A stretch of 64,000 nucleotides of DNA from a virus. The notes beneath the pieces are model-generated. The model was given only the letters and a program-made list of their open reading frames with translations. It made no database searches and was not told the origin of the DNA. Of this stretch, positions 1-15,091 are shown one piece after another (position 1 is the first letter of the stretch; every line of letters starts with the position of its first letter). The DNA lies in IMG/VR virus record IMGVR_UViG_3300020183_000012, positions 82,720 through 146,719 of that record; one strand, given 5' to 3'. The translations under genes were made by a program, and so were the position numbers.

Positions 1-14
1 TTTGAAGGATTGTC

Positions 15-311
15 ATGTCAAGAAAGAACAGATCATACATTTTGGTAGTTCGCTGCACCGTAGACGCGGTGGAATCTGTGCTTTCTGCGGAAAAAAGGTG
101 TCCTTTTATTAGCAATCAGGTGGATTCCCGATATGCTTCGTCGTGGGGAAGTCAATACGAAATTGTTTATTCATGCAAACTAAAAAAAGACGCCTTTGCA
201 ATCAAGAGATGGTGGCTTGAAAATGGGCAACTGGACAATCCTGAGTTTTCAATAAATCAGTCATGCTCCACATATTCTACAACCCGTCAAACGATTCTTT
301 TAGGGTACTGA
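15..311 (+). CDS. hypothetical protein
   Basis: ORF with GAAGGA upstream; no recognisable motif; overlaps next ORF by 49 nt. Confidence 0.4.
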   Translation: MSRKNRSYILVVRCTVDAVESVLSAEKRCPFISNQVDSRYASSWGSQYEIVYSCKLKKDAFAIKRWWLENGQLDNPEFSINQSCSTYSTTRQTILLGY

Positions 312-472
312 AATACGACTACGAAGTAAGGGACTTCATCAATCGCCCAATTTACTCAGGCGGTCAATGGAAATACATTCAACTAAGTCCCGATGACTGC
401 ATCGCAAAGTTGATGCAATTCGTCAGAGATGAAACACCGAGCGATGAGTACCGCTCTGACGAACTTATTTGA
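263..472 (+). CDS. hypothetical protein
   Basis: 69-aa ORF, same strand as rest of array. Confidence 0.55.
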   Translation: MLHIFYNPSNDSFRVLKYDYEVRDFINRPIYSGGQWKYIQLSPDDCIAKLMQFVRDETPSDEYRSDELI

Positions 473-480
473 CACAACAG

Positions 481-525
481 GGTCAGTTTAGGTTGGTTGA
501 GGCTTGTTTAGATAAGGTATGATTT
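481..525 (+). ncRNA. solo GNY-NN pentamer run (candidate guide RNA of the RAMP-associated system)
   Basis: ggtca gttta ggttg gttga ggctt gttta gataa ggtat gattt: 9/9 pentamers G at position 1 and pyrimidine at position 3. Confidence 0.6.
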
Positions 526-550
526 TTCATCGGGTGAATAAACTAATGGC

Positions 551-916
551 ATGAGTCACCCTTACCATCACGCTCTGTCAAGTGTCAAGCGTTTCGGAGG
601 CACTTGGAGCGATTACATTGAGATTCACGAATGGTTCGATCAGACGAAGGCTCTTATCCCTGATGTTCGTCATCGGGCAATCCTTCATTCGTCTTTCGGA
701 ATCTTCCTGTGCCAACAGGTTTTCGGTGAGGTTCTTGTGCGGGATTCTGACGGAAAGCCCGTGCCTGTCCGTACCATTGCGGAGCAACACATTATTGAGG
801 ACATGGGATTTATCCCTACTCCTCAAGATTGGTTTGCGGGTATGCAGCCCGAGAAGTGGATGGCAAGAGGAGCAAAGCCTCTTTCCGCTGAAACAGAACA
901 AGTTTTGGCTGACTAG
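551..916 (+). CDS. DUF6915-like phage protein
   Basis: HPYHHAxSSxxxFGG, IHxWFDxTK, RHRAxxHxxFGI and AEQHIxED motifs; leaderless start 6 nt after TAAACT. Confidence 0.8.
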   Translation: MSHPYHHALSSVKRFGGTWSDYIEIHEWFDQTKALIPDVRHRAILHSSFGIFLCQQVFGEVLVRDSDGKPVPVRTIAEQHIIEDMGFIPTPQDWFAGMQPEKWMARGAKPLSAETEQVLAD

Positions 917-926
917 ACAATCTTAA

Positions 927-1000
927 GTTCCCGTGGCTCAGTTGGATAGAGCAGCCGCCTTCTAAGCGGCAGGTCGCTGGTTCGAGTCCAGCCGGGAACG
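927..1000 (+). tRNA. tRNA-Arg(TCT), no encoded CCA
   Basis: acceptor GTTCCCG/CGGGAAC, anticodon arm GCCGC-CTTCTAA-GCGGC, T-loop TTCGAGT. Confidence 0.95.
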
Positions 1001-1008
1001 CTTCTACG

Positions 1009-1034
1009 ATACCCGGTTCATAGCCGGGTATTTT
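1009..1034 (+). terminator. intrinsic terminator-like hairpin
   Basis: ATACCCGG-TTCATAG-CCGGGTAT followed by TTT. Confidence 0.6.
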
Positions 1035-1225
1035 AACTAATCCGGGGAATCTGCATTATTTTGCTTGCCTATTTGGTCTATTGGGCTATAGTTCCACCTC
1101 TGAAGAGATGATTCAAGGTGCATAGACTACATAGGTGAAAGTTGCATCCCGAGAATAGACTAATGGGGTAATAGTGCCGCACCGAGTGGCACAACAAGTT
1201 GAGCATTCGCACAAGGATACAAATA

Positions 1226-1864
1226 ATGCCTGTTGCAAGTCCTATTGATACCGGAACACGCACCTTGACTTTCATCATCAAGGGAATCGCACCGTTGATG
1301 ATGCACAACGGTCTGTTGGCTTCGCCCTTCTATTCGTATACCAAGCGTCTGAAGGAGATCACCAAGAAGCGCGGCAAGACCGAAGAGGATCATATTGAGG
1401 TGGCTAAGATTGAGTGGGAAGGCGGTCTTTACATGAGTAGCCGCGATGCGGATACTGGTCTTTGGTCTGAGGACTCGCATCCCATCATTCCCGCTGAGTG
1501 TCTTTACGCGACCCTTCTCGCGGGAGCAAAGGCTTTCAAAGGCGGGATGTCTTTCAAGGCAGGAGTGTTCATTACTCAATCGGCTCGTCTGCGCTACAAG
1601 GGAGACAACAAGATCAAGACTCTTGCTGACCTTCGTGGCAAAGATATTTTCATCGACTCCCGCCTCGTTGATGTAAACGGCAGCAAGGTGACGCGAACCC
1701 GCCCGATCTTCCACGATTGGTCGTGCGAGTTCAATGTTGAGTATGATCCGTCCGTTGTTGATGAAGCAGACCTTATCCGTTGGGTTCAAACGGGCGGTAG
1801 GCTCAAGGGTCTTTGCGAACTGCGTCCAACGATGGGTCGGTTCACCATTGAGTCTTACAAGTGA
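1226..1864 (+). CDS. stand-alone Cas7/Csm3-like RAMP-fold protein (Vipr-like)
   Basis: N-terminal strand IKGIAPLMMH, PIIPAECLYATL (compare Cas7/Csm3 PxIPGSSLKG), WSCEFNVEYD, C-terminal G-loop GLCELRPTMGRFTI; ACAAGGA RBS before ATG 1226; followed by pentamer array. Confidence 0.7.
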   Translation: MPVASPIDTGTRTLTFIIKGIAPLMMHNGLLASPFYSYTKRLKEITKKRGKTEEDHIEVAKIEWEGGLYMSSRDADTGLWSEDSHPIIPAECLYATLLAGAKAFKGGMSFKAGVFITQSARLRYKGDNKIKTLADLRGKDIFIDSRLVDVNGSKVTRTRPIFHDWSCEFNVEYDPSVVDEADLIRWVQTGGRLKGLCELRPTMGRFTIESYK

Positions 1865-1870
1865 TGCTCT

Positions 1871-2204
1871 CCTCTCTCCGCAGAAATGCGTAGAGAGGCT
1901 TTCTTATGGTCTGCTTTGGCAGGATACGGTTCGTTGCGCTCAGGAGTGGTCTGCTTCTCGCCTTCTACCGGGGAAACCCGGTTTGGAGGCTTTCTTTAGG
2001 TCGGATGCCCTCAGATTGGGCTAGTTTAGGTAGGGTGTGATGCGATGTGTTCCGCTTCTCGCCTTCTACCGGGGAAACCCGGTTTGGAGGCTTTCTTTAG
2101 TCTTGTTGGGGCATGATACGGTCAGGTTCGGTAAGGTCAGAAGAGGTATGCTTCTCGCCTTCTACCGGGGAAACCCGGTTTGAAGGCTTTCGTGGGTACG
2201 GCAA
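1871..2204 (+). ncRNA. array of GNY-NN pentamer runs separated by a conserved GAAA-tetraloop hairpin repeat
   Basis: repeat GCTTCTCGCCTTCTACCGGGGAAACCCGGTTTG(G/A)AGGCTTTC at 1953, 2054, 2150; related hairpin at 1871-1898; variable runs 1908-1952, 1999-2053, 2100-2149 are exact multiples of 5 nt. Confidence 0.8.
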
Positions 2205-2273
2205 AGTTGCATCCGTTGAATAAAGTAGTCTTGCCCAAGTGGGCAATCTCAATCATCTAGGAGCAGAACAACA

Positions 2274-3284
2274 ATGGCACATGGAATTAAGAATCGTGAT
2301 CGCGTCCTCATCGTTGGTGACCGTGGTTGGCACGGGTTGGGTCAGCAGATGGATTCGATCAGCATGACCGATCTCAAGGAGCAGTTCCCATACTCCTACG
2401 AGAAGGTTCCGATGTTCACCGCCGATGGCGTGGAAGTTGAAGGCTTCAAGGCTGTCATCACTACCGATGACAAGCAGAGCAACGGTGTCGTGGGTGACAC
2501 CTACGAGATCATCAACCTTGACGAGATGTTTGGTCTTGCTAACGATCTTGTTGTTGCTCACGGGACGGGTCGTGTTGTCAGCGCAGGAAGCCTTCACAAC
2601 CGCGAGGACTTTTTCGTTGATCTCGGCATCGACCGCGAGTTCCGCAGCGGTGAGGATGTCAACAAGCCATTCATCGGTATCACCAACAACTTCTGTGGTA
2701 TGCGCCACTTCGTTGCGGGAGCGCACATGAACAGGATCGTCTGCGCCAATACTCTGAATCTCATGCTCCGCGAAGTCAAGGGTTCTCCTCGCGCCATCAA
2801 GATTCGTCACACTAAGGGTGCATGGAACCGACTCGCTGAGGCGAAGCGCATTCTCGGCATCACCCTTGCCGCGTTCGACAAGGCTGATGAGGAGATGCAC
2901 CAAATGATCTCCAAGAAGATGACCGATGCAGAGATCGCTTCGTACTATGATGCCATCATGCCGATGACCAACATCCCGCCTCGCCGTGCAGACGAGAACG
3001 AGGAGCAGTATGAAGCCCGTGTTGAAACCATCGAACGCGCAAACCGCAAGGCTTCCCGTGTCCGTGCAGAGTGGAGCATGACGCTTGACAACGAGCGCGG
3101 CGTTCTTGGTCAGGAGCCGAACCTTTGGCTTGCGATGAACTCCGTGACCAAGTGGGTTCAGCATGAGAATCAGGTGAAGAACGAATCGACCAATCCCCTG
3201 ATCCGTGGTTGGAGCAACCGTTTTGCAACGGGCTTCAAGATGACAAACGAAGCCCATGACGCAGCATTGTCTGTGCTTGGGTAA
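2274..3284 (+). CDS. DUF932/DUF945-family phage/plasmid protein
   Basis: WHGLG near N-terminus, RIVCANTL motif, KIRHT, LWxAxNxVT. Confidence 0.85.
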   Translation: MAHGIKNRDRVLIVGDRGWHGLGQQMDSISMTDLKEQFPYSYEKVPMFTADGVEVEGFKAVITTDDKQSNGVVGDTYEIINLDEMFGLANDLVVAHGTGRVVSAGSLHNREDFFVDLGIDREFRSGEDVNKPFIGITNNFCGMRHFVAGAHMNRIVCANTLNLMLREVKGSPRAIKIRHTKGAWNRLAEAKRILGITLAAFDKADEEMHQMISKKMTDAEIASYYDAIMPMTNIPPRRADENEEQYEARVETIERANRKASRVRAEWSMTLDNERGVLGQEPNLWLAMNSVTKWVQHENQVKNESTNPLIRGWSNRFATGFKMTNEAHDAALSVLG

Positions 3285-3294
3285 ACCGAACTAA

Positions 3295-3385
3295 GGTTAG
3301 GTATGGCGAGTCTAGGTATGCCCTGCCATTGTATGGTCTGTCAAGTTCAGTCCCCTTCACCGGAGAAATCCGGTGGAGGGGTTTT
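3295..3385 (+). ncRNA. solo GNY-NN pentamer run plus GAAA hairpin
   Basis: 12 pentamers ggtta...gtccc, then CCCCTTCACCGGA-GAAA-TCCGGTGGAGGGG-TTTT. Confidence 0.7.
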
Positions 3386-3403
3386 GCCGATAAACATAAT
3401 GAC

Positions 3404-3474
3404 TGCCTTGTGGTGAAACGGTATCACGGGAGACTTTGGATCTCCTTTTCTTGGTTCAAATCCAAGCAGGGCAA
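3404..3474 (+). tRNA. tRNA-Gln(TTG), no encoded CCA
   Basis: acceptor TGCCTTG/CAGGGCA, anticodon arm GGAGA-CTTTGGA-TCTCC, T-arm CTTGG-TTCAAAT-CCAAG. Confidence 0.9.
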
Positions 3475-3517
3475 ATCTTTCATCCTGGAAATAAACTAAT
3501 CGGACAAGGAGAACCGG

Positions 3518-3733
3518 ATGCAGAACCCCGTTACCATCACCGAAAACTGCCGAATCACCGGAGAGGCTTACTCAGTCACGGTGGATTCAGGCGACCTTGA
3601 GCGTTACAAGAACGGCGAGGGTCTGATTCAGAACATCTTCCACTACCTTAACGCAGGGGATCGTGAGTTCATCAAGACAGGCATCTCGCCCAAGGGTTGG
3701 GAAATCATGTTTGCAAACGAAGAAGAGGACTAA
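3518..3733 (+). CDS. hypothetical phage protein
   Basis: promoter/RBS repeat upstream; LIQ..F..L....REFIKTGI motif. Confidence 0.8.
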   Translation: MQNPVTITENCRITGEAYSVTVDSGDLERYKNGEGLIQNIFHYLNAGDREFIKTGISPKGWEIMFANEEED

Positions 3734-3735
3734 CA

Positions 3736-3993
3736 ATGTCATTTGAACTACGCGCACGGATTATGATTGGAAGAGGGTACAAGTTTGCCCTCGCTCAGAT
3801 TTCTGAGGACGGTGTTAATGAGTTCATCCCTGCATTTGCAAACCGTGGTGCTTTTCTTGTTCCCATATGGATCAAGTCTCAGGATGCCCACAATGTTGTC
3901 GCGGTTCTTGGTAGTGAACCAACAGACGATCAGAAGGAAGTGACCATCCCGCGTGGCTACATCCTCAGCATCGCAATGATGCCAAGTATGTAA
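3736..3993 (+). CDS. hypothetical protein
   Basis: GAGGA RBS before ATG 3736. Confidence 0.7.
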   Translation: MSFELRARIMIGRGYKFALAQISEDGVNEFIPAFANRGAFLVPIWIKSQDAHNVVAVLGSEPTDDQKEVTIPRGYILSIAMMPSM

Positions 3994-4057
3994 GTGCCAT
4001 CTCAATAATTGGCAATCTTTCATCGGGCAAATAAACTAATAGGACAAGGAGAACCGG

Positions 4058-4255
4058 ATGCAGAACCCCTTTGACAACGAACCTGAGTGTTCCTGTGACG
4101 GCTGTGACGGCAAGTTTCCCGAATCATTGATGCGTCCTGCCACCTACCGTTATGTGGACGAATCTTGGGAGACTTTCCACTTCTGCCCGTCATGCATCGC
4201 TAGAGATAGAAAACTGGATGAAGAAGCGCACCTCCGGTCACCGCACCTGTGGTGA
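4058..4255 (+). CDS. small Cys-rich (zinc-finger-like) protein
   Basis: CxxC...CxxC; repeat upstream. Confidence 0.75.
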   Translation: MQNPFDNEPECSCDGCDGKFPESLMRPATYRYVDESWETFHFCPSCIARDRKLDEEAHLRSPHLW

Positions 4256-4280
4256 TCGACAAATGAACTAACTGTGCAAA

Positions 4281-4484
4281 ATGAGCAAGAAAGACGATTC
4301 TTCAAGAAAATCAAAGAGCCTTGGGGAACTGATTGACCGTTGTCCAAGATGCGGTCGTACAATCACTTGGTTCAACGACATTCCGCTCAGGGGTTTCTGT
4401 TGGGGAACGCCCGATAACGAACACGAAGAGTATTCCGTGATTGTCTGTCAGAAGAAGATCGAAGATTTTTCATCGCGGAAATAA
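4281..4484 (+). CDS. hypothetical protein with CPRC motif
   Basis: degenerate repeat upstream; stop lies within next repeat. Confidence 0.6.
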   Translation: MSKKDDSSRKSKSLGELIDRCPRCGRTITWFNDIPLRGFCWGTPDNEHEEYSVIVCQKKIEDFSSRK

Positions 4485-4507
4485 AGTAGTTGCACAGGAA
4501 ACAAGCA

Positions 4508-4825
4508 ATGAGCGATGCATTTTCTAAAGAAATAAACTCTCATGTCTCCTCCATGAAGCAGGACATGAAAGATGTGGTTGACAAAGAACTTAAGTCTCTT
4601 GTCCTCTCCCTTGTTTCCGAGGGAATCGTCAATGCCAATTTTGACGACAAGGGCTATCTGAACGACATTTCGTTTACGGAAGGAGGCAAGGCTTTCATGG
4701 AAGTCTTGGCTTTCAATCTATCGCACCGAATCGAAAAGATTATTGAGAGCGATGGCATCAAGGAAAAGGAAAAGCAGGAACTTAAATCAGTCCTGAAGCA
4801 CATGAAAAACTTGCCGCTCCCGTGA
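4508..4825 (+). CDS. hypothetical protein
   Basis: repeat and CAGGA upstream of ATG 4508. Confidence 0.7.
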
Positions 4826-4846
4826 TGGAGCCGTATAGTTTGGAAA

Positions 4847-4920
4847 GCCCTCGTAGTTCAGTTGGATAGAGCGACGGTTTCCTAAACCGTAGGTCACAGG
4901 TTCGAACCCTGTCGGGGGCG
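4847..4920 (+). tRNA. tRNA-Arg(CCT), no encoded CCA
   Basis: acceptor GCCCTCG/CGGGGGC, anticodon arm ACGGT-TTCCTAA-ACCGT, T-loop TTCGAAC. Confidence 0.95.
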
Positions 4921-4954
4921 TTTCAAAGTTTCATCACAGGAATAAACTAGAAAT

Positions 4955-5266
4955 ATGAACACGAATTACGAAGATTTCCTCAGTCTCAGCGAAGTGACCG
5001 CTGCCGTTGCGCTTGCAGAAGGCGACAATACAACGGGAATGGAACTCATCCTGCTGAATGACGATGACGGCAATCTGACGGGAGCAGTTGCAGTCCATAC
5101 GGACGGTACGCTTGTCGGTCTTGATACTTCCGACATTATGACTGCCGTAGGATATCACAAGAACAAGGATGCTTTCACAAATGACGGCGAAGGAGCCGTC
5201 ACGGTGCGCCTTGAGGACGGATTCGTAACGGGGATTGATGTCGTTTTGAGAACCCACGAGTCTTGA
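4955..5266 (+). CDS. acidic hypothetical protein
   Basis: leaderless ATG 6 nt after TAAACT. Confidence 0.75.
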   Translation: MNTNYEDFLSLSEVTAAVALAEGDNTTGMELILLNDDDGNLTGAVAVHTDGTLVGLDTSDIMTAVGYHKNKDAFTNDGEGAVTVRLEDGFVTGIDVVLRTHES

Positions 5267-5370
5267 GTTCATCTCACGGGTCGCACTCTCGTTATAAGTG
5301 CAAACACTACGACCATCTGTAGCCTAAATGCTCAGGTGGTCATTTTACATCCGGCAAACAGGATAATAGT

Positions 5371-5565
5371 ATGAAGAAGCAAAGACAGAGCGAAATACGC
5401 AGGGCTTTGAGTCCAAACTCAGAATCCATCATGGCTTCATTTTGGTTTCTATGCGGATTCTTTGTGTTACTTTACATTTTCATAAAGACACCAATACTAA
5501 ATGTCATTTCACAGTATGTTCTTCATCCTATCAGGGATGCCCTGATGCCGGGGCCGCCGCCATGA
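5371..5565 (+). CDS. small membrane protein
   Basis: hydrophobic segment FWFLCGFFVLLYIFI. Confidence 0.55.
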   Translation: MKKQRQSEIRRALSPNSESIMASFWFLCGFFVLLYIFIKTPILNVISQYVLHPIRDALMPGPPP

Positions 5566-5621
5566 GAACGAGCACGAAAGTTTCATCCGTTGAATAAACT
5601 AATCGTACAAGGAGAGCATAA

Positions 5622-6332
5622 ATGCCAAACTGGACTGGAAATCTTCTCAAGGTCAAGGGTAAGAAGGCCGACCGCGATCTGTTTGCATCCGAACTCAAGG
5701 CTTTCATCCGCAGCAAGTTCAAGCCTCTAATCAACAAGTGGGCGGAGGAAAACCCAGACGAGTGCCGCAACAAGTACGAGAAGCGAATCGTTCCGGTGTT
5801 CGACTTCAACTTCGTGATCCCAATGCCCGAGGAACTGGAAGGCACTACTTCTCCCCGTCCGATGACGCGAGAGCAAATCATTCATTTGGCGAAGGAGAAT
5901 GAATGGCCGGAGGACACTCTGAAGTGGCGGCTTGAAAACGCTCTTACTGAAGATGATGCAAAGCGTCTTGATGAACTTAAGAGCCGCTATGGTTTCGATA
6001 ACTGGTACGAATGGTGCTGTGCCCATTGGGGGACTAAGTGGAATGCCTGTAACTCTGAAGGTAACAGCCCCCAAGAAACAGCGACCATGACTATCTACAG
6101 TTTCGATACCGCTTGGTCACCGCCTGTCCCTGTCATTCACGCACTTGCCGCTGCCTACCCCAAACTGACTTTCCGCCTTGACTTTACCCTTGAGGGTGAG
6201 TCAGGAAAGTGGAACATTATTGGCGATTCCAAGCAATACGCAGGGTGCATCAAGGCACTTGCGAAACGCCAAGTGGAGTTGGAACAGACGATCTGTGCAA
6301 TGTTCCGTGAAGGCACTATCGAAAGCAAATAA
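5622..6332 (+). CDS. DUF1281/YubB ferredoxin-like domain protein
   Basis: MPNW start, NWYEW....WGTKWNA, FDTAWSPP. Confidence 0.85.
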   Translation: MPNWTGNLLKVKGKKADRDLFASELKAFIRSKFKPLINKWAEENPDECRNKYEKRIVPVFDFNFVIPMPEELEGTTSPRPMTREQIIHLAKENEWPEDTLKWRLENALTEDDAKRLDELKSRYGFDNWYEWCCAHWGTKWNACNSEGNSPQETATMTIYSFDTAWSPPVPVIHALAAAYPKLTFRLDFTLEGESGKWNIIGDSKQYAGCIKALAKRQVELEQTICAMFREGTIESK

Positions 6333-6350
6333 TCTGCCGATAGAGGAGAT

Positions 6351-6797
6351 ATGGCTAACTTTCTCCGTTCCATCTTTGCTGCGCTAAAGGAGCCATTTCC
6401 GGCTGCGATATGCAACTGTATCCTTGATGCCTATGTCCATCCACGCGACATTCCTGTCGTGATCCAATACATGAAGGACTTTACTTATCAAGATATAAGT
6501 CTTTCTTTCGGAAACACGGACAGTCCAGATAGGACTCACATTGAGGTGAAATTCAGGGATTCGGAGTGGACTCCCAACGAGATCGTTGATTCTTTCTTTA
6601 TTTATCAGGACGATCTTCAAAGACTCATCCCCAATGGGGAATTCGTTTTCTCCATCCAAGATCACCATGTTGTTCCGTCATTTAGGAACATCATAAGGGA
6701 GAAGTACCGCACCTTCTTGTCGCGGTGGACTAGACACCGGATGAAGGTAAGCAAGCGTTGGAGGTCAGGAGATGTCGAAGTTACATCATGTAAATAA
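6351..6797 (+). CDS. hypothetical protein
   Basis: GAGGAG RBS; GCCGATAG box at 6336. Confidence 0.7.
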   Translation: MANFLRSIFAALKEPFPAAICNCILDAYVHPRDIPVVIQYMKDFTYQDISLSFGNTDSPDRTHIEVKFRDSEWTPNEIVDSFFIYQDDLQRLIPNGEFVFSIQDHHVVPSFRNIIREKYRTFLSRWTRHRMKVSKRWRSGDVEVTSCK

Positions 6798-6821
6798 ACT
6801 AATTGGACAAGGAGAACACCC

Positions 6822-7184
6822 ATGACATTCATTCCCGCCAACTTTGATGCCATGCTGACCGATCCCGGCAAAACCGTTGCGAAAGACCCATGCTTCCGTT
6901 CATGCCGAAACATGGGTTTTCAGATGACCTTCTCCAACGGATGGATGATCTCCGTACAGTTTGGAGCGTTCAACTACTGCTCCAACCGCGACTTGAACGC
7001 AGACTCAACCATGTTTCTTGATGGGCCGAAGGGGACTCTGGAGTGCGCCAACGCCGAGGTTGCCGTCTTCAACCCTGACGGCGATTTTGTTCGCCCCGAT
7101 GGTTTTGACTTTAGTGAAGATGTGAAGGGTTTTGTTAACCCTGACGAGGTTTCTCTTTTGGTTAGGTGGGTTTCTAGCCGATAA
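6822..7184 (+). CDS. hypothetical phage protein
   Basis: repeat upstream; GFQMTFSNGW.ISVQFG..NYC motif. Confidence 0.8.
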   Translation: MTFIPANFDAMLTDPGKTVAKDPCFRSCRNMGFQMTFSNGWMISVQFGAFNYCSNRDLNADSTMFLDGPKGTLECANAEVAVFNPDGDFVRPDGFDFSEDVKGFVNPDEVSLLVRWVSSR

Positions 7185-7209
7185 AGGGTTCCTACAGAAA
7201 GGAACTCCT

Positions 7210-7500
7210 ATGGGCAAGATCAAATCATTTACATTAAATATAGAACCGGAAATCGTCAGTCAGACCTACCCTGAACTTACCGAAGCACAGGTCGCCGCCG
7301 TCATGGAAGAACTGATTCAGTACGAAACTGACATCTTTGACTTCATATTCGAGAAAATTGAAGAGATTGTTGAGGATACAACCGATGGCGACGAAGAGGC
7401 GGATGATGATGACGAAGATGACGAAGATGACGACGACAATGACGAACCGTGGATGGATGAGGACGAAGACGAAGACGAAGACGAAGACGAAGACTTCTGA
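7210..7500 (+). CDS. highly acidic protein with D/E tail
   Basis: AAGGA RBS; C-terminal ~40 residues almost all D/E, including (GAAGAC)x5 at 7465-7494. Confidence 0.75.
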   Translation: MGKIKSFTLNIEPEIVSQTYPELTEAQVAAVMEELIQYETDIFDFIFEKIEEIVEDTTDGDEEADDDDEDDEDDDDNDEPWMDEDEDEDEDEDEDF

Positions 7501-7542
7501 AAGTTTCATCCGCTGAATAAACTAATCGGACAAGGAGAACCC

Positions 7543-7845
7543 ATGACGAAGAAGATGACCGTGCACGAATCGTTGGCTTGCAACAATTGCCTCATCGCAA
7601 TTACGATGCTCGACCTGTCGCTGAACGATGTCTACGGTGGTGGTGGTGCGAAGTCGATGATCCGCGAACTCGCCCCTGAGTTTTGCGGGAGCCACTACAA
7701 CTCCGAACACATCACCGACCGTTGGGATGATATCAAAGAGATTCTGATGAATCTTGACATTCCTGACGATCATCAGTCGAATCTCGCAGGGATGGCTGCG
7801 GAGGAGTCCATTCAGACTCTCCTGCTTGTCCGCGCTGTCGGTTAA
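7543..7845 (+). CDS. hypothetical protein
   Basis: repeat upstream. Confidence 0.75.
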   Translation: MTKKMTVHESLACNNCLIAITMLDLSLNDVYGGGGAKSMIRELAPEFCGSHYNSEHITDRWDDIKEILMNLDIPDDHQSNLAGMAAEESIQTLLLVRAVG

Positions 7846-7949
7846 GACTTTGGGTTCTCCTCCCCATTAGACGGGTAGGTTCTTCTTCGGAAGTTCCTAC
7901 CCGTCAACTTTACATCCGGGGAATAAACTAACTGTACAAGGAGAACCCG

Positions 7950-8405
7950 ATGAACTTCAGGTACAACGATGGAGGACGAGCCGCTGCCGGATACAAGGGA
8001 CACACCGGAGACTGCGTGACTCGTTCGATTGCGATTATCACCGGGCTTCCGTATCAGGAGGTCTACGATGTCCTGTCGAACGGATGCCGCACTCAGCGCA
8101 TCACCCGTGGAGGTCGCTACAAGTCATCTGCCAGTAACGGAGTGAACACCAAGCGCAAGTGGTTCCGCGATTACATGGAGGCACTTGGCTTCCAGTATGT
8201 CGCAACGATGGGAATTGGCAGCGGGTGCAAGACCCATTTGCGTTCGGATGAACTGCCGAAGGGCCGTCTTATTGTGCAGGTCAGCAAGCATTACACCGCC
8301 GTGATTGACGGAGTAATCAACGATACCTTTGACCCGTCCCGTGACGGCACTCGTTGCGTCTACGGTTACTGGATTCACAAACCCCTGTCCAAGATCACTG
8401 CCTGA
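7950..8405 (+). CDS. conserved phage protein, possible papain-like fold
   Basis: YNDGGR...GDCVTR...KHYTAVIDG..NDT pattern (Cys/His/Asp). Confidence 0.75.
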   Translation: MNFRYNDGGRAAAGYKGHTGDCVTRSIAIITGLPYQEVYDVLSNGCRTQRITRGGRYKSSASNGVNTKRKWFRDYMEALGFQYVATMGIGSGCKTHLRSDELPKGRLIVQVSKHYTAVIDGVINDTFDPSRDGTRCVYGYWIHKPLSKITA

Positions 8406-8431
8406 TACCTCTCACACTGGAGAACCTGACC

Positions 8432-8911
8432 ATGCAAATCAAGATCACAATCAACCTCGCATGCAACAACGCCGCATTCGCCCCGGACGATGCTAGAGGA
8501 TCGAGCGTTGCGGCATACGAGGAGGTCATGCGCATCATCAACGACGGCACGATGCCTTGGGTCATCGAAACGGCACTTGAGACGGCGACCGATACCGTCA
8601 CCTCGCACATCGGGCGCATCCTGAAGGATGTGAACGGCAACACAGTCGGGCGCATCGATGCGGAGGTGCAGTCGGCGCGGATGCACCACGCGGCGGAGAT
8701 CCCAGCACCGTGCAGGAACGACTCGACACCAACAACGAAGACCGCGATCAGTGGATGGACCGATTCCGATCTGACGATTGTGCTAGAAGCCGCCTATCAG
8801 GCTCTGTCCGACAGTCGCACTGGAGCGTCCATTGCAGAGCGCATGGACATCAGTGACGATGAACTCGATGCGACCATCTTGCGCCTCCGCGCAGTGCTGT
8901 GGACTGACTGA
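8432..8911 (+). CDS. hypothetical protein
   Basis: GGAGAACC RBS; NAAF...LKDVNGNTVG motif. Confidence 0.75.
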   Translation: MQIKITINLACNNAAFAPDDARGSSVAAYEEVMRIINDGTMPWVIETALETATDTVTSHIGRILKDVNGNTVGRIDAEVQSARMHHAAEIPAPCRNDSTPTTKTAISGWTDSDLTIVLEAAYQALSDSRTGASIAERMDISDDELDATILRLRAVLWTD

Positions 8912-8980
8912 CCGATGTACGCCGCCGCGTGAAAGAAAGTTTCATCCAATGAATAAACTAATCGGACAAGGAGAACACCC

Positions 8981-9316
8981 ATGACATTCATTCCCGCCAA
9001 CTTTGATGCCGACCAGTACGAACTGTATACCCCCGACAACGGAGACCGGAGTCAGTCAGAGGATGCGGCAGCGAAGATCAATAACATCATCAACTGTCAA
9101 CTTCAGAACAACATCACGAATTGTCGCACCGCTGCGGTTGGTGCTGCCACGAAGATGCTCCGTGAGGTTGAGCGTCAGATCATCGCACTTGGATATGAAA
9201 AGAAGTTTGGTGCGCTAGACACCGAGCCTCGCTACATCATCCGCCTTGCAATCGCCCGTAACATCCGCAAGTGGGCGGATATGGAAGAATACGAGTTCAA
9301 CACGGACTCATTCTGA
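8981..9316 (+). CDS. hypothetical protein sharing its first 10 aa with ORF 6822
   Basis: MTFIPANFDA identical; repeat upstream. Confidence 0.8.
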   Translation: MTFIPANFDADQYELYTPDNGDRSQSEDAAAKINNIINCQLQNNITNCRTAAVGAATKMLREVERQIIALGYEKKFGALDTEPRYIIRLAIARNIRKWADMEEYEFNTDSF

Positions 9317-9348
9317 AACTTTCATCGGGCAAATAAACTAACTAGGCA

Positions 9349-9570
9349 ATGTTTCATCCTTCCCAACAGCACCGCAGAGGGACTCCCGTGATTCAACTCC
9401 ATGAAACTGTAATGGGTCAAAGGCTGATTCTTCGTGACATTCCGACTTTGGTTGACCAACTGGCTCTCCTCAACCGTAACCTTGAGGCGTTGACAATTCA
9501 ACTTTCCTCACTCCGTGCAGAACAGAAGCCTAACACCGAGGCTGAAGTTTCATCGGAGAAAATGAAATAA
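9349..9570 (+). CDS. hypothetical protein
   Basis: repeat upstream; start could be GTG 9388. Confidence 0.6.
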   Translation: MFHPSQQHRRGTPVIQLHETVMGQRLILRDIPTLVDQLALLNRNLEALTIQLSSLRAEQKPNTEAEVSSEKMK

Positions 9571-9587
9571 TCAAACAAAGGAATCCA

Positions 9588-9854
9588 ATGCACGAAGAAC
9601 TCATGACACTTGACCAGTATATCGAAGCCCTCAACGCCATGAAAAAGACGCATGGTGGGGACAGCCTGATCTTCGTCTTTGATCGCTCGTTCAGCGATCT
9701 TGCTACTCAGGTTAAGAAGATGGGCAAGCGAGAGTTTGACCGTGAAATGTCGGACGATGATGTGGACAGCATCATCTTCTCCATCAACCCGAGTCCTGTT
9801 CACGATGCCATCAACGGCGCGATTGAGAGTGCCTTTGATTCGTATGTGAAGTAA
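9588..9854 (+). CDS. hypothetical protein
   Basis: variant repeat with AAGGA RBS. Confidence 0.75.
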   Translation: MHEELMTLDQYIEALNAMKKTHGGDSLIFVFDRSFSDLATQVKKMGKREFDREMSDDDVDSIIFSINPSPVHDAINGAIESAFDSYVK

Positions 9855-9884
9855 ACTTTCATCGCAGGAATAAACTAACTGCGG

Positions 9885-9946
9885 ACTCGTCTGAGCGAGT
9901 ATAAACAGGGTATTAGGCTCAGAGCGGCAGGGAAACCTGCTTTACC
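9885..9946 (+). ncRNA. pistol self-cleaving ribozyme
   Basis: P1 ACTCG/CGAGT, loop TCTGAG pairs with CTCAGA (pseudoknot), ATAAACAG linker, P2 GGTA/TACC, TTAGG, GCG, P3 GCAGG-GAAA-CCTGC. Confidence 0.88.
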
Positions 9947-10145
9947 GCCTCCCACGCCATGCAGAAAGTCCGGACTTTCAGCACCGCGTTCCAACTGTGG
10001 TGAATGCGCAGCCGCAGGGGAGAAAGAGCGTCGGCATCCTTCCCTCGCTCAAGGTGTTAAAAAGGGTGCGAACGGAACCCACCGCAGCCCCACTAGACCC
10101 AAAGAGGAGAAATTCTCGCGGGAAAGGTGGGGCTGTGCGTTGGCA
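9947..10145 (+). ncRNA. candidate structured RNA downstream of the ribozyme
   Basis: no plus-strand ORF in track; stems CACCGC/GTGGTG, GAGCG/CGCTC, GGGT/ACCC, CGCAGCCCCAC/GTGGGGCTGTG; palindrome GAAAGTCCGGACTTTC. Confidence 0.5.
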
Positions 10146-10189
10146 AACTTACATCAGTCGAATAAACTAATTTCAGCAAGGAGGCTAAA

Positions 10190-10372
10190 ATGCTTGTAAT
10201 CACCCGTAGAGAAGGCGAAGAGATCGTGATAGGTGAGCCACGCGCACCGCTTGGGATCATCCGTATTGTAGCCATCAAGGGAAGCCAAGTTAAAGTGGCA
10301 CTTGAGTTCCCGAAGGAAGTCCCGGTGAACCGCCGCGAGATTGCGGAAGAGATCATCAGCGAAGAGGAGTGA
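10190..10372 (+). CDS. csrA: carbon storage regulator CsrA homolog 1
   Basis: MLVITRREGEEIVIG...VKVALEFPKEVPVNRREI matches CsrA pattern. Confidence 0.9.
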   Translation: MLVITRREGEEIVIGEPRAPLGIIRIVAIKGSQVKVALEFPKEVPVNRREIAEEIISEEE

Positions 10373-10376
10373 TCGA

Positions 10377-10598
10377 ATGAAAACCTTTCATGTGTGTTGG
10401 AAACTGAAGACGAGCGTGGTCACCGTGGAGGTGATTACGATGACGGGACGCGAAGACAGCATGGTGGAAAAGACCGCCATGCACAATCTCAAGCGCGACG
10501 GGGTCTTCATTGACAAAACTCGTCTTGAAAAACCGACCATCACTCTTGTCTACAGCGGGGAGTCAACAGCCAAAACTTTCATCGGGCAAATAAACTAA
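10377..10598 (+). CDS. hypothetical protein
   Basis: GGAG RBS; stop lies within next repeat. Confidence 0.6.
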   Translation: MKTFHVCWKLKTSVVTVEVITMTGREDSMVEKTAMHNLKRDGVFIDKTRLEKPTITLVYSGESTAKTFIGQIN

Positions 10599-10614
10599 CC
10601 CGACAAGGACAGAT

Positions 10615-10836
10615 ATGCTTAGCATCACCCGTTCAGAAGGCCAAGAAGTTGTGGTCGGAAATCCTGCCGCACCGCTTGGAATTATTCGGATTGAAAAGAT
10701 CAAGAGCGGGAAGGTAAGGATAACCTTTGACTTCCCAAGAGAGATGCCTGTGCATCGCGCTGAGGTTGCAGCCGAAATCTTGCGTGATCGGGAGGCTCAA
10801 GACAAGGAGTTCATGAAGAGGACTTTCGGGGAGTGA
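10615..10836 (+). CDS. csrA: carbon storage regulator CsrA homolog 2
   Basis: MLSITRSEGQEVVVG...VRITFDFPREMPVHRAEV. Confidence 0.85.
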   Translation: MLSITRSEGQEVVVGNPAAPLGIIRIEKIKSGKVRITFDFPREMPVHRAEVAAEILRDREAQDKEFMKRTFGE

Positions 10837-10879
10837 AACTTTCATCGGGCAAATAAACTAACTGCACAAGGAGAACCCA

Positions 10880-11422
10880 ATGCGACTTGTGATTGACGCA
10901 GAAACAAACGCAATCGACTTCAATGCTTGGAACAAGGGAGACAGTTCTTCGCTCAAGAAGATTCATTGCCTTTGCGCGATTGACGCAGACACCGGAGAGG
11001 AATACTCTTACGAAAGCGACACGCTGAACATAGGTCTGATCCATGTTTACTCTGCTGATATGCTGATCGGACACAACCTTGCGTTTGATATCCGTGCAAT
11101 GGAGGTGTGGAGTGGAACACCGCTTCCCTCCCGGATCAAGAAGAACTGCACTTACAAGTCCGTTAAGAAGATGTTTCCCCACGGCTTCCGCGAACACCGC
11201 ATCACCAACCCTGATCGCAAGGGGTCGAACTCGCTTGAGGCTTGGGGATACCGCTTGGGAGTCCACAAGGAAAAGCCTCCGATTGATTGGAGCAAGCCGG
11301 ATCCGTTGATGCTTGGTTACTGCTTGCAAGACTGCCGTGTGACGCTTGCGCTGCATCGCCTCATCGAACGCCGCAAGAGATGGGGAATGCTTTCCCCGCT
11401 CATTGAAACTTTCATCGGGTAA
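10880..11422 (+). CDS. stand-alone DEDDy 3'-5' exonuclease (family A polymerase proofreading type)
   Basis: ExoI IDAET, ExoII GHNLAFD, SLEAWGYRLG, ExoIII YCLQD. Confidence 0.85.
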   Translation: MRLVIDAETNAIDFNAWNKGDSSSLKKIHCLCAIDADTGEEYSYESDTLNIGLIHVYSADMLIGHNLAFDIRAMEVWSGTPLPSRIKKNCTYKSVKKMFPHGFREHRITNPDRKGSNSLEAWGYRLGVHKEKPPIDWSKPDPLMLGYCLQDCRVTLALHRLIERRKRWGMLSPLIETFIG

Positions 11423-11449
11423 ATAAACTAACTGGACAAGGAGAGTCTC

Positions 11450-11725
11450 ATGTGCAAGTCAAAGACTGACATCAGCCCGAAGGTCGCAGAGAACCTCATC
11501 AGCGAGATCAACCGTCTGAAGGCGAAACTGGACATCGCACCGCGTGTCGCCGTGAAGGGAAACCCGGACTCGCAGATGGTTGAGGTTTCTCGTACCGGAT
11601 TCGAGGACGCGCTTGACTGGATGGCGTTTATCATCCACCGTGCCTCTGAAACACCGGAGCAGCGCGAAGCCCGTGAGCAACTGGACGAACAGAACAGCGT
11701 CTACAATCGCGGACTGGGAATCTGA
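11450..11725 (+). CDS. hypothetical protein
   Basis: repeat upstream. Confidence 0.75.
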   Translation: MCKSKTDISPKVAENLISEINRLKAKLDIAPRVAVKGNPDSQMVEVSRTGFEDALDWMAFIIHRASETPEQREAREQLDEQNSVYNRGLGI

Positions 11726-11830
11726 GCCATCCTGTGTGGCGGGGTGCGGCAGTCCGAGCGGGCTGTCCACCCCGTCACCTTACGAACTTGCATCGGGGAA
11801 ATAAACTAACTGGACAAGGAGAACCCAGCC

Positions 11831-12070
11831 ATGATCGTCCACTTCGTCAAGTCCAACCCCGAATACCCGAACATGATCGTCTTCGTCTACGAGGACACCA
11901 TCAGCCTCTGCAAGGGCAGCACTGGCAACGCCATCGTGACCGCTTGGGCTAAGGCTGACCGCTCCGTCCCGAACGAGGACGAGGTTCACGACATCATCAG
12001 CGACTTCATTGAGCGTTGGCAGGACGAATACAGCCCGAGCGAGTGGAGCAAGTTCGCACCCGCCACCTGA
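11831..12070 (+). CDS. hypothetical protein
   Basis: repeat upstream. Confidence 0.75.
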   Translation: MIVHFVKSNPEYPNMIVFVYEDTISLCKGSTGNAIVTAWAKADRSVPNEDEVHDIISDFIERWQDEYSPSEWSKFAPAT

Positions 12071-12083
12071 CGAGGATCAACCA

Positions 12084-12323
12084 ATGAACACGACTCCGCT
12101 CCGCGTCTCGTTCACCTGCCCCTGCTGCAACAGCGGGGGCTTCTTCAGTCCTGAGTTGAAGTCTTTCGACCAAATCGCGGGTTCCACCACCGATTGTGGG
12201 AACTGCGATGCCCTCCTCATCGTGACCCTGGACGGGACTGTCGCACCGTTCCATGAGTGGGTTAACACGGGAGATTACCGTTGGCCGAAGGACGGCAAGG
12301 GGACGAGTTTCATTACCGTCTGA
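12084..12323 (+). CDS. zinc-ribbon protein
   Basis: GAGGA RBS; CPCC...CGNC. Confidence 0.7.
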   Translation: MNTTPLRVSFTCPCCNSGGFFSPELKSFDQIAGSTTDCGNCDALLIVTLDGTVAPFHEWVNTGDYRWPKDGKGTSFITV

Positions 12324-12366
12324 AACTTTCATCGGGCAAATAAACTAATCCGACAAGGAGAACCGA

Positions 12367-12645
12367 ATGACTTACAAGAAGGAAGGCTACATCTCGGTCG
12401 ATAGCGGTCAGATCATGATCATCGACCCGTGCTACATCAAGAAGGACTTTGAGAGCGAAAGCACCGACAAGGCGGGTCTGAACTACGCAGGTGCTTGCGC
12501 TGTCACCCTGTCGGAGAACCTCTGCGGTGAGTTCGGTGGCCTTGCGTTTGCCTCCTCCACCTATTCAGGTGACGGGGAATACCCTGTCTATGTCAAGCGT
12601 GACCGCTACGGCAAGATTCTCTCCGTCAAGATCAAGTTTGCCTAA
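12367..12645 (+). CDS. DUF4241-like protein
   Basis: VDSGQIMIIDPCY and GDGEYPVY motifs. Confidence 0.75.
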   Translation: MTYKKEGYISVDSGQIMIIDPCYIKKDFESESTDKAGLNYAGACAVTLSENLCGEFGGLAFASSTYSGDGEYPVYVKRDRYGKILSVKIKFA

Positions 12646-12774
12646 TGGGTGCATCATGGGGCGTGGCAGGGATTCTCTGACGAGATCCTGTGGCGGGTAG
12701 CCAACGGGTGCGTTCCTGACCACGCCCCTCCAATCTTTCATCGGGCAAATAAACTAATCGGGCAAAGAGAACCC

Positions 12775-13044
12775 ATGAACACCCGAATCACCATCAAGGA
12801 CTTGGATCGCGCTGTGATCGAACTGAACTCGCTCCTCGGCTACACGATGGGGCAGGAAGGATCGTTCTGCTTGCAGGGATCCTACGGCGGATGGCAACTT
12901 CAGCGCAAGTGTGGCATCGGAAACGAGGCCGTCACGAACGGATACATTCCGAAGCGCAAACTGTTTGACCGCATCACCGACATTCGACGGGGCGTACAGA
13001 TCACCAAGAAGGTGCTGAATCTCAACGCCTACTACACGAACTAG
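12775..13044 (+). CDS. hypothetical phage protein
   Basis: ATG directly after repeat; RITIKDL...SYGGWQL motif. Confidence 0.8.
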   Translation: MNTRITIKDLDRAVIELNSLLGYTMGQEGSFCLQGSYGGWQLQRKCGIGNEAVTNGYIPKRKLFDRITDIRRGVQITKKVLNLNAYYTN

Positions 13045-13091
13045 CAACAATCTTTCATCGGGGAAATAAACTAATCCGACAAGGAGAACCC

Positions 13092-13409
13092 ATGTCGAAC
13101 CAAGCAATGTACCGCGAAGGCGCACCCTGCCCGTGGGGAAAGATTCTTGACACTCAGAAAGTGGCTGACGGAATCCACTTCCTCAGCACCGCAGGACACG
13201 GAGGCTACCTTCTGTCCCGTGAGCGTTTCAATCAGATGCCCGAGCACCTACGCAACCTTTCGTTCACCTCCGATCAATACTTTGAGGAAGATGTTTCGTG
13301 GTGTGCCGTTCCAATCGCCTTCCCTGAGGCGTTCAGCAAGGGAACCGTTGCAGCCGCCCAAGACTGCTACGACTCATGGCTTCACAACAATCTTTCATCG
13401 GGCAAATAA
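13092..13409 (+). CDS. DUF7007-like protein
   Basis: PWG...ADGI...STAGHGG..LS.ER...FEEDxxW. Confidence 0.75.
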   Translation: MSNQAMYREGAPCPWGKILDTQKVADGIHFLSTAGHGGYLLSRERFNQMPEHLRNLSFTSDQYFEEDVSWCAVPIAFPEAFSKGTVAAAQDCYDSWLHNNLSSGK

Positions 13410-13432
13410 ACTAATCCGACAAGGAGAACCCA

Positions 13433-13825
13433 ATGAACCGGAACCTCAAGTACCTGACCGTTGCCCTGACTGGTGGAGCAGTCTCGTTTGCCGTGGCAAT
13501 CGCATTGGACAGATCCATGCCCAAGGCATTGACCTTCATCGCTACTGGTGTGGCAGCATCGCTCGTCTCCCACATCGTGCTGTCGCTCATGGTCGCACGG
13601 AAGGTCAACCGTGTGAGCAAGACGAGCAAGAAGTTCGGTGACTTCCACCACGATCTCAACCACCTCAAGTATCCGGTTTACAACCGCAGCAAGGTGATTG
13701 AGAAGGAATCACCTGCCGCACCGAAGGGCAAGACCAAGCCGAAGCGGAAGAACCCGCCAAAGGGAAAGAAGCCAAACCCGCCCACCGATGCGGTGAATGA
13801 CGCTTCAAGCCTCAACACCGACTGA
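13433..13825 (+). CDS. membrane protein with basic tail
   Basis: two N-terminal hydrophobic segments, K/P-rich C-terminus. Confidence 0.7.
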   Translation: MNRNLKYLTVALTGGAVSFAVAIALDRSMPKALTFIATGVAASLVSHIVLSLMVARKVNRVSKTSKKFGDFHHDLNHLKYPVYNRSKVIEKESPAAPKGKTKPKRKNPPKGKKPNPPTDAVNDASSLNTD

Positions 13826-13871
13826 AACTTGCATCAGGGAAATAAACTAACTGCACAAGGAGAACCCACCA

Positions 13872-14255
13872 ATGAGCAGCACCAAGACGATGATCCTGAT
13901 CAAGGTCGATGGAACCGTGAGCGAAATCCCTAACACCGGATACGAAAGCATCGTGGCCGCAATCGGCGGCGGTTACATTGAGGCAGTCCCGATGGGCGAT
14001 GGTCACGCAGCCTACATCGACGAGGAGGGCAAGTTGAAGAACCTCCCCATCAATCCGGTCGCAACCTTCCTGTGGTACAAGCGTCTGCGACCAATGGGAG
14101 ACTTCCTGTGCGGAGACTGCGTGGTTGTCCGCAGCGTCAACGACGAGGGCGAACTGGACGGCGAGGACTACACTCCCTGCCCCGAAATCCGCAAGACCGC
14201 AGATCAGATCACCGCGATGGACGACCTTGCACGGTGTCACTTCGTCACCCCCTGA
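13872..14255 (+). CDS. DUF3846-family protein
   Basis: GGYIEAV...IDEEGKLKNLPINPVAT...GDCVV. Confidence 0.85.
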   Translation: MSSTKTMILIKVDGTVSEIPNTGYESIVAAIGGGYIEAVPMGDGHAAYIDEEGKLKNLPINPVATFLWYKRLRPMGDFLCGDCVVVRSVNDEGELDGEDYTPCPEIRKTADQITAMDDLARCHFVTP

Positions 14256-14363
14256 CACATTGGGTTCCGCGTGTGGGGCAGGGCAGGCAGCGTCTCGCCT
14301 CCCTGCCCCACCGCGTTTCTTGCATCCGGAGAATAAACTAATCGGGCAAGGAGAACCCACCAC

Positions 14364-14534
14364 ATGACCACCAAGCCACCCACCGGACACCGACCCGGAA
14401 AGTTCGTACACGACGCCTTCCGAGCAGGCATCCGACTCCGCGCCAAGACTTGGGGCAAGCGGAACACCGACCCCCGCACCGAACGCAGACGCGCCAAGAG
14501 CGAACTGCGGCGGGAAGTTGCATCAGGGAAATAA
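14364..14534 (+). CDS. small basic protein, 56 aa (not in ORF track)
   Basis: MTTKPPTGHRPGKFVHDAFRAGIRLRAKTWGKRNTDPRTERRRAKSELRREVASGK; full repeat with RBS upstream. Confidence 0.7.
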   Translation: MTTKPPTGHRPGKFVHDAFRAGIRLRAKTWGKRNTDPRTERRRAKSELRREVASGK

Positions 14535-14579
14535 ACTAATCAGGCAAGGGAATAGTTCCCCTGCAAGGAGAACCCAACC

Positions 14580-14978
14580 GTGAAGCAGATCAGCAGCGTC
14601 AGCAAGGATACCGCCACCGCACTCCGCGATGCCGTCAAGACCCACTTCGACATCACCCCCGGAAGCGCGATGAGCGGCGAGATCACCTTCGCCATCACCT
14701 TCGACATGAAGCGCGGCGAACCGTACACCAAGACCGTCCCCCAAGCCGCTTGCCCGTGGACGCTACTCTCTGTGGCACTCCACCTCGCAGGATTCGGTCG
14801 CGGTCGCATCACCGAGATCGTCAGTACCGTGCAGCAGATGACCGATGAGCAGCGCAAGGAGTACCGCGACTCCATGAGCGAATCCGTCAAGGAAGTCATG
14901 GAAGGGATCGGCGCAACCACCGTCCGCACCGTGCCAGGAACGCAGACCTTCAACACCTTCACCGTGCAGGTCACCTAA
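14580..14978 (+). CDS. hypothetical protein
   Basis: CAAGGAGAACCC before GTG. Confidence 0.75.
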   Translation: MKQISSVSKDTATALRDAVKTHFDITPGSAMSGEITFAITFDMKRGEPYTKTVPQAACPWTLLSVALHLAGFGRGRITEIVSTVQQMTDEQRKEYRDSMSESVKEVMEGIGATTVRTVPGTQTFNTFTVQVT

Positions 14979-15091
14979 ACGGGTGAACCCACGGTCAGGA
15001 TGAACCAAGCAGGGCGTGGTGAGCCGTACACCGCGCCCTGTACCATTGTTGCATCGGGGAAACAAACTAACTAGACAAGAGGAACCCACCC

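Follow-up and report, generated by a model that had tools for sequence, protein, structure and literature searches.

A VIPR locus with a relaxed G-N-Y guide scaffold in the genome of an uncultured 147-kb phage

The locus described here is very probably a VIPR system of an uncultured 147-kb phage, made up of a Cas7-like Vipr protein and five guide RNAs (vrRNAs) by which the transcription of a rival element would be silenced. It lies near the beginning of the window, that is, the whole stretch of 64,000 nucleotides that was analyzed, which corresponds to the final 64 kb of a virus record consisting of one contig of 146,719 bp. VIPR (Viral Interference Programmable Repeat) is a CRISPR-related type of RNA-guided DNA silencing that was described in preprints dating from April to October 2026 (bioRxiv 10.64898/2026.04.26.720920, 10.64898/2026.04.26.720927, 10.64898/2026.10.15.759431), with the family defined from the X1U2U4 and SUSP1 Vipr proteins. 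According to these preprints, a vrRNA is ~100 nt long and holds at least 4, typically 9 to 16, tandem pentamers, each with conserved scaffold positions and a hypervariable dinucleotide (NN). A 1-nt-skip rule was established there for SUSP1, by which the concatenated NN pair with double-stranded DNA in the form NN-x-NN-x. VIPR having already been published, the present locus is a genuine, well-preserved further example and not a new class of system. It is distinctive in its relaxed G-N-Y scaffold, its lack of vap1, and its plain hairpin tails. With VIPR only months old, each well-resolved natural locus helps to map the diversity of the family.

In the proposed mechanism, Vipr would polymerize along vrRNAs of ~90 to 100 nt with one protomer per pentamer. 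Each pair of protomers would hold G1 and Y3, such that G1, N2, and Y3 would be hidden and NN presented, and the concatenated NN would then pair with double-stranded DNA as NN-x-NN-x. Transcription of the bound gene would be blocked, most likely in a competing mobile element, and a conserved hairpin tail with a GNRA loop would cap four of the five guides. The evidence gathered in this analysis consists of homology, fold, functional residues, repeat statistics, conservation of the tail RNA, array turnover, and a constraint on NN that exceeds the one on positions 2 and 3; filament assembly, the skip rule, DNA binding, and silencing come from the preprints only and would apply here by analogy. A non-CRISPR RNA-guided system of VIPR type had been proposed in an earlier sequence-only reading of the same DNA, partly by comparison with reported phage systems of this kind. 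The comparison was borne out by the three 2026 preprints, and the proposal itself was supported by the homology to SUSP1 Vipr, by the Csm3/Cas7 fold, and by the presence of arrays at the loci of homologs.

The vipr product was compared with known proteins by sequence and by predicted structure. With phmmer, it matched PDB chain 36pp_D (“SUSP1 Vipr protein”) along its entire length (E value of 3.5e-16), query residues 14 to 209 aligning with residues 4 to 188 of the chain; that protein had been solved in complex with a pentamer guide RNA. A further match was to phrog_4652 (E value of 3.5e-43; annotated in PHROGs as of unknown function), and the Pfam search of Vipr assigned no family. By tblastn, homologs were present in 131 phage records, Felixounavirus included, and the family comprised 2169 representative clusters at an E value of ≤1e-3. 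Identity amounted to 27% with the SUSP1-type protein of phage wV8 and to 38% with the homolog of Pseudomonas phage Medea1. The AF2 model, calculated from 14 homologs, had a pLDDT of 92 and a pTM of 0.85. When this model was searched against the PDB with Foldseek, 66 matches were obtained at an E value of ≤1e-3, the top ones all being Csm3/Cas7 proteins (E value of ~1e-5, TM score of ~0.5), and the G-loop motif G-x-x-E-L-R-P...G-R-F aligned with its SUSP1 counterpart. As modeled, Vipr is a minimal RAMP fold with an RRM core, a G-loop, and a thumb. The Cas7/RAMP-like protein suspected from the letters alone thus turned out to be a homolog of the solved SUSP1 Vipr, and the structure prediction and Foldseek search that had been suggested as a check both agreed with the suspicion.

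The cryo-EM preprint on SUSP1 names six residues that read the scaffold or the target, namely, H17, K33, R138, D177, W178, and R179, with W178 stacking on G2. Five of the six were found by alignment to be kept or conservatively replaced in the window protein (H17 as H27, K33 as K43, R138 as R159, D177 as E198, and R179 as R200), the exception being W178, which is replaced by L199. The Vipr proteins of the window clade additionally carry a 10-residue insertion after helix 2.

Five runs of G-N-Y-N-N pentamers accompany the gene, one upstream of it, three in an array directly downstream, and one behind the next gene (Table 1). Across their 50 pentamers, G was found at position 1 in 48 and a pyrimidine at position 3 in 48, leaving two units with a broken G1 and two with a broken Y3. 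In contrast to these two positions, position 2 was G in 25/50, so that only half of the units comply with a strict GGY consensus, and all 16 dinucleotides were used at positions 4 and 5. The sequence-only reading had given 49, 49, and 25 of 51 for G1, Y3, and G2, respectively, and the gap is explained by the choice of boundaries. Perfect G-N-Y runs of at least 7 units occurred five times on the plus strand and not at all on the minus strand of the first 22 kb of the window; 200 dinucleotide-preserving shuffles gave 0 runs of this length, the longest reaching 6 units, and no further G-N-Y runs were found in the whole 146.7-kb genome. The two runs outside the array that had been picked out by eye proved to be real, the second of them with a GAAA hairpin tail of its own. 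Periods of 101 and 96 nt between the array units were likewise reproduced from the starts of the three tails, and these fit the published vrRNA size of ~100 nt. The guide regions themselves showed no notable predicted RNA structure, which is the expectation for a protein-bound single strand.

Table 1. Features of the VIPR locus and its surroundings (window coordinates; E, E value)
Feature	Position	Strand	Description
vrRNA-A guide	481..525	+	9 G-N-Y-N-N units; no hairpin tail
Promoter-like 23-nt repeat, DUF6915 gene	525..547	+	Abuts last vrRNA-A unit
DUF6915 gene	551..916	+	Pfam PF21866, E 1.2e-44; upstream neighbor, syntenic in close relatives
tRNA-Arg(TCT)	927..1001	+	
Promoter-like repeat, vipr	1142..1164	+	
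vipr	1226..1864	+	212 aa, minimal RAMP/Cas7-like (predicted); AAGGA ribosome site 9 nt upstream of ATG
H0, GAAA-capped hairpin	1871..1898	+	Just past vipr stop; -17.2 kcal/mol, z -3.2
vrRNA-B	1908..1998	+	9 units, 1908-1952; 46-nt tail, 1953-1998, with hairpin 1961-1989
vrRNA-C	1999..2099	+	11 units, 1999-2053 (unit 3 departs from G1); tail, 2054-2099, with hairpin 2062-2090
vrRNA-D	2100..2195	+	10 units, 2100-2149; tail, 2150-2195, with hairpin 2158-2186, U.G changed to U-A
Promoter-like repeat, DUF932 gene	2207..2229	+	
DUF932 gene	2274..3284	+	Pfam PF06067, E 1.7e-29; between array and vrRNA-E
vrRNA-E	3295..3392	+	11 units, 3295-3349; 13-bp GAAA hairpin tail, 3352-3381, then T-run
tRNA-Gln(TTG)	3404..3474	+	~12 nt past vrRNA-E tail
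Promoter-like repeat	3478	+	

A constant structured 3' tail is present in four of the five guides, vrRNA-A being the one without it. The four GAAA-capped hairpins that had been seen after the ORF were confirmed as H0 and the hairpins of three near-identical 46-nt tails, and so was the replacement of a U.G by a U-A pair in the third tail copy. For the vrRNA-E hairpin, the folding z score was -4.0. H0, judged from its sequence, is a copy of the tail hairpin that has diverged and marks the 5' boundary of the array; it is identical in the relatives L018 to L021, and in L018 and L019 a T-run comes after it. Fifteen tails from the window and its relatives, 14 of them distinct, were aligned on a model of an interrupted hairpin of 11 pairs. 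In the 14 distinct tails, 154/154 cells were paired, compared with 23 to 59% in slid controls, and compensatory changes were observed at 5/11 pairs, with G.U intermediates present in the alignment. Because pairing was kept through these intermediates, the constraint acts on the RNA. The GAAA loop could pair with the TTTC beside it to give a pseudoknot, but tails with a GUAG loop showed no matching change, and the idea, which covariation did not support, was dropped. The hairpin alone explains the conservation of the tail. An Rfam scan of window positions 1 to 6000 returned tRNAs only; the tails matched no family, and between the guides there was no ribozyme.

These data also bear on whether the pentamer runs might act as DNA, for instance as iterons or as sites for a replication or partition protein, with ordinary terminators for hairpins and no guide RNA at all. 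Tandem short repeats beside hairpins are known at origins, and a T-run does follow the vrRNA-E hairpin, but the repeats here are strictly strand specific and co-oriented with the genes, and tail pairing survives through G.U intermediates, which are relevant in RNA only. Moreover, iterons do not vary as positions 4 and 5 do, with all 16 dinucleotides in use, and the adjacent Vipr is homologous to a protein that was solved with exactly such an RNA. A role purely as DNA is therefore scarcely conceivable for these runs, and the vrRNA reading is retained in what follows.

Arrays of the same kind were found at 20 or more other loci, as had been anticipated in the suggestion to look for pentamers beside homologs. 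In the phages Medea1, LESphi2, phiHSIC, wV8, and MakoManhole, GGY-NN runs stood beside vipr in all five. A search for related loci in viral contigs with Vipr alone gave no match. The metagenomic relatives whose Vipr proteins are 84 to 96% identical to that of the window have kept the order DUF6915, vipr, array, DUF932, guide, and the number of guides after vipr differs among them, with none in L006, two in L018, up to two in L020, and about nine in L019, compared with three in the window. The relatives stem from JGI metagenomes 3300021091, 3300020578, 3300020603, 3300020084, 3300042453, and 3300044294. The long array of L019 (Vipr 95% identical; positions 3186-4160) includes two near-duplicate tandem units, at 3333-3449 and 3450-3562, and on this sequence evidence it is suggested that arrays grow when units are duplicated and their NN then diverge. 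Phages that are nearly identical, come from several metagenomes, and carry from 0 to ~9 guides thus offer material on how guides originate without Cas1/Cas2.

Comparison of individual guides between relatives indicated which positions are held constant. Orthologs of vrRNA-A (L006 and L018 to L021) kept NN while positions 2 and 3 changed; vrRNA-D has orthologs in L009 and L018 to L020; and the vrRNA-E orthologs (L018 and L020) had 8 differing sites, 0 of them in NN. In a hand count over the close orthologs of guides A, D, and E, variable columns numbered 17/60 at positions 2 and 3, 4/60 in NN, and 1/30 at G1. Between different guides, NN is hypervariable. Conservation of NN within orthologs together with hypervariability across guides is the signature expected if NN specifies the target and position 2 is free.

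The freedom of position 2, which had been described earlier as a code relaxed to GNY, was upheld by the count of G2 in 25/50 units and gained a structural rationale in L199, which occupies the position of SUSP1 W178. A free position 2 matches the replacement of the G2-stacking Trp by Leu, the link being correlative. In 8 loci with W, Y, or F at the W178 position of Vipr, the G2 fraction ranged from 0.69 to 1.00, and in 5 lineages with L, M, or E, from 0.06 to 0.60, with no overlap between the groups. By lineage, the non-aromatic values were ~0.45 for the window clade (L), 0.60 for L034 (L), 0.06 for L027 (E), 0.40 for L047 (M), and 0.36 for L048 (L). Among 126 Vipr representatives, defined as those with a recognizable G-loop among the 150 nearest, the position was W, Y, F, or H in 96 and another residue in 30. 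Since the non-aromatic lineages are most closely related to one another, a single ancestral change may be common to them all. The association of scaffold base G2 with a pocket residue (Trp, Tyr, or Phe versus Leu, Met, or Glu) bears on how far vrRNAs can be reprogrammed.

A relaxed position 2 and irregular units could also be products of erosion, in which case the locus would be a decaying, non-functional VIPR remnant. Such a history is highly improbable. It would accommodate G2 in only 25/50 units, the two breaks each in G1 and Y3, the absence of vap1, and a target search without a find (see below). It does not agree with an intact ORF in which five of the six residues named for SUSP1 are kept or conservatively replaced, with G1 and Y3 preserved at 96%, or with the compensatory changes in the tail hairpin; nor does it agree with orthologous guides that hold NN while positions 2 and 3 drift, with array content that turns over among near-identical relatives, or with the recurrence of the same relaxed G-N-Y scaffold in lineages whose Vipr is 37 to 52% identical.

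With the locus taken as a preserved VIPR system, the window clade may, together with lineages at 37 to 52% identity, for example, the Viprs P0014 and P0017 and those of L027 and L034, form a distinct Vipr subfamily in which loss of the aromatic residue freed position 2 and G-N-Y came to be read. This grouping is put forward tentatively, as a real possibility that falls somewhat short of being the favored one. The loci of the putative subfamily have no detectable vap1, and their array comes directly after vipr wherever downstream sequence exists; in the window and in L047 and L048, the distance from the vipr stop to the first run is 17 to 44 nt. GNRA-capped hairpins mark the limits of the guides in the window clade and in L048; those of L048, which flank its guide, are of GNRA type. 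Under the subfamily reading, DUF932 may be a so far unlisted accessory, and if the reading is true, the freer scaffold leaves 3/5 guide bases unconstrained. As a separate observation, runs flank the distant L027 Vipr (37% identity; Glu in place of the Trp) at 424-538 on the minus strand and at 1445-1535. G is hardly ever found at position 2 of these runs, one of which is 23 units long and is located on the opposite strand from vipr.

The gene vap1 (phrog_5926) was searched for with an HMM built from four vap1 proteins. At E values of up to 10, no match was found in the 146.7-kb genome or in L006 to L028, and the same HMM did find vap1 beside vipr in 11 other Vipr homolog loci. The gene was not detectable in the five non-aromatic lineages, with L047 and L048 judged by their gene lists. 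A system that looks to be working without vap1 supports Vipr and vrRNA alone as the core. No CRISPR array of direct repeats and spacers was seen at the locus, and the remark that cas1, cas2, cas3, and a nuclease were missing from the neighborhood held good, there being no cas gene among the Pfam matches of the neighbors and no nuclease nearby.

The gene that follows the array encodes a DUF932 protein, which from its sequence is a possible accessory. In all relatives whose sequence continues downstream, including those with Vipr identity as low as 62%, it comes after vipr and its array. It was also found in Gordonia phage MakoManhole (L005:1694-4255), where the order is vrRNA, vipr, vap1, vrRNA array, DUF932; A second phage lineage, unrelated to the first, thus has DUF932 after its VIPR array. 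These positions, the placement of the fifth guide directly behind the DUF932 gene, and the description in a 2026 preprint of VIPR types whose accessory genes encode a nuclease or helicase could point to a VIPR-family locus that destroys its target through an unrecognized partner, for example, the DUF932 protein. Destruction by such a partner is nevertheless quite unlikely. The DUF932 protein has no known nuclease motif and matches no other Pfam family even at E values of up to 1, its gene has a promoter-like repeat of its own, and the synteny seen among close relatives cannot count as independent evidence. In addition, DUF932 is common in actinophages (357 phage records) and is absent from beside 11 other Vipr homologs. 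Silencing by binding is therefore still the preferred reading of the locus.

With type II VIPR, as known from Escherichia phage SUSP1 and a Pseudomonas fulva prophage, the locus shares a homologous Vipr of minimal RAMP fold, guides of 9 to 11 pentamers with a constant 3' tail of ~45 nt, and the arrangement of one guide upstream and an array of three downstream. It is likewise encoded by a phage, with no nuclease beside it and no targeting of the phage's own genome. It differs from type II VIPR in its free scaffold position 2 (G2 in 50%, versus 100% in wV8, with Leu in place of Trp), in the lack of vap1 from the window genome and its clade, and in an array that begins directly after vipr. In contrast to the pseudoknotted tail of the SUSP1 clade, the tail in the window is a GNRA-capped hairpin of 11 to 13 bp with no covariation support for a pseudoknot. 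The preprint text gives NNNGG, YNNNG, and NNNNG as variant repeats; in the same notation, the pattern of the window would be written YNNGN. The backbone proteins of class 1 CRISPR systems (Csm3/Cmr4/Cas7) share with the modeled Vipr the RRM core, the G-loop, and the thumb and, by analogy, would share fixed-step polymerization on guide RNA. Unlike class 1 CRISPR, the locus has no CRISPR array, cas1, cas2, cas3, cas10, second RAMP, or Cas6. The VIPR step is 5 nt rather than 6, only 2/5 of the guide bases pair, and a VIPR guide is a tandem repeat rather than a unique spacer.

For the search for targets, the published 1-nt skip (NN-x-NN-x) was assumed from SUSP1, and exact matches were required, whereas the preprints accept ≥80%. 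Since only exact matches were considered, a null result in this search is weak evidence. Within the phage's own genome, no match stood above shuffled-guide controls at skips of 0, 1, and 2, and the absence of self-targeting has also been reported for other VIPRs (2026 preprint). No match in the loci of the relatives stood out over other skip lengths. When viral contigs were scanned for guides C, D, and E, the D consensus, and a relaxed C as exact 1-nt-skip patterns, which are 20 to 22 bases long, 0 matches were obtained, and 185,579 species genomes likewise gave 0 matches for the D consensus and guide E. The 18-base patterns of guides A and B had a few matches, at about the estimated chance level. 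The gapped-pattern search recommended in the sequence-only reading was thus carried through with exact patterns, and a natural target was not found. The two distinct matches of guide A were set aside as chance, their NN falling in the wrong codon phase. For guide B, an exact match of 18/18 was found in psbA, encoding photosystem II D1, on an IMG/VR contig (L033:13313-13338), with NN on codon positions 1 and 2 of a conserved C-terminal motif. As judged from sequence, it is unlikely that this match is a real target. It is probably due to chance, because an 18-base pattern is estimated to find one to three chance matches in such a collection, because no other guide converges on the same contig, and because the psbA in question, whose closest relatives are psbA genes of marine Synechococcus myoviruses, resembles those genes.

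With regard to its setting, the VIPR locus sits within a block of ~50 kb with a GC content of ~50% inside a phage genome of ~31% (window 1-22000 versus 22000-64000; genome 50-104 kb versus the rest). A chimeric assembly was considered as the source of the jump in GC content and was rejected, since the right-hand junction and its gene order are common to four independent JGI contigs. A 23-nt promoter-like repeat occurs in the same block in 28 copies, every one of them on the plus strand and none outside the block (window 525-15602; genome 50309-98321), mostly 10 to 30 nt upstream of a strong ribosome site. The spacing of the two boxes of this repeat is too short for a sigma-70 promoter, and the repeat suggests a phage-specific polymerase or sigma factor. 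From the positions of its copies, it follows that each guide or array closes a promoter-led gene cassette at its 3' end; vipr, H0, and guides B to D are predicted to be one unit. The DUF6915 gene appears from sequence to be a conserved upstream neighbor with no shown link to VIPR. Because tRNA-Gln begins so soon after the vrRNA-E tail, its processing might, by our own inference, help to trim the vrRNA-E precursor. Around the VIPR locus, three tRNA genes, the two listed in Table 1 and Arg(CCT) at 4847-4920, are interleaved with small early-gene cassettes.
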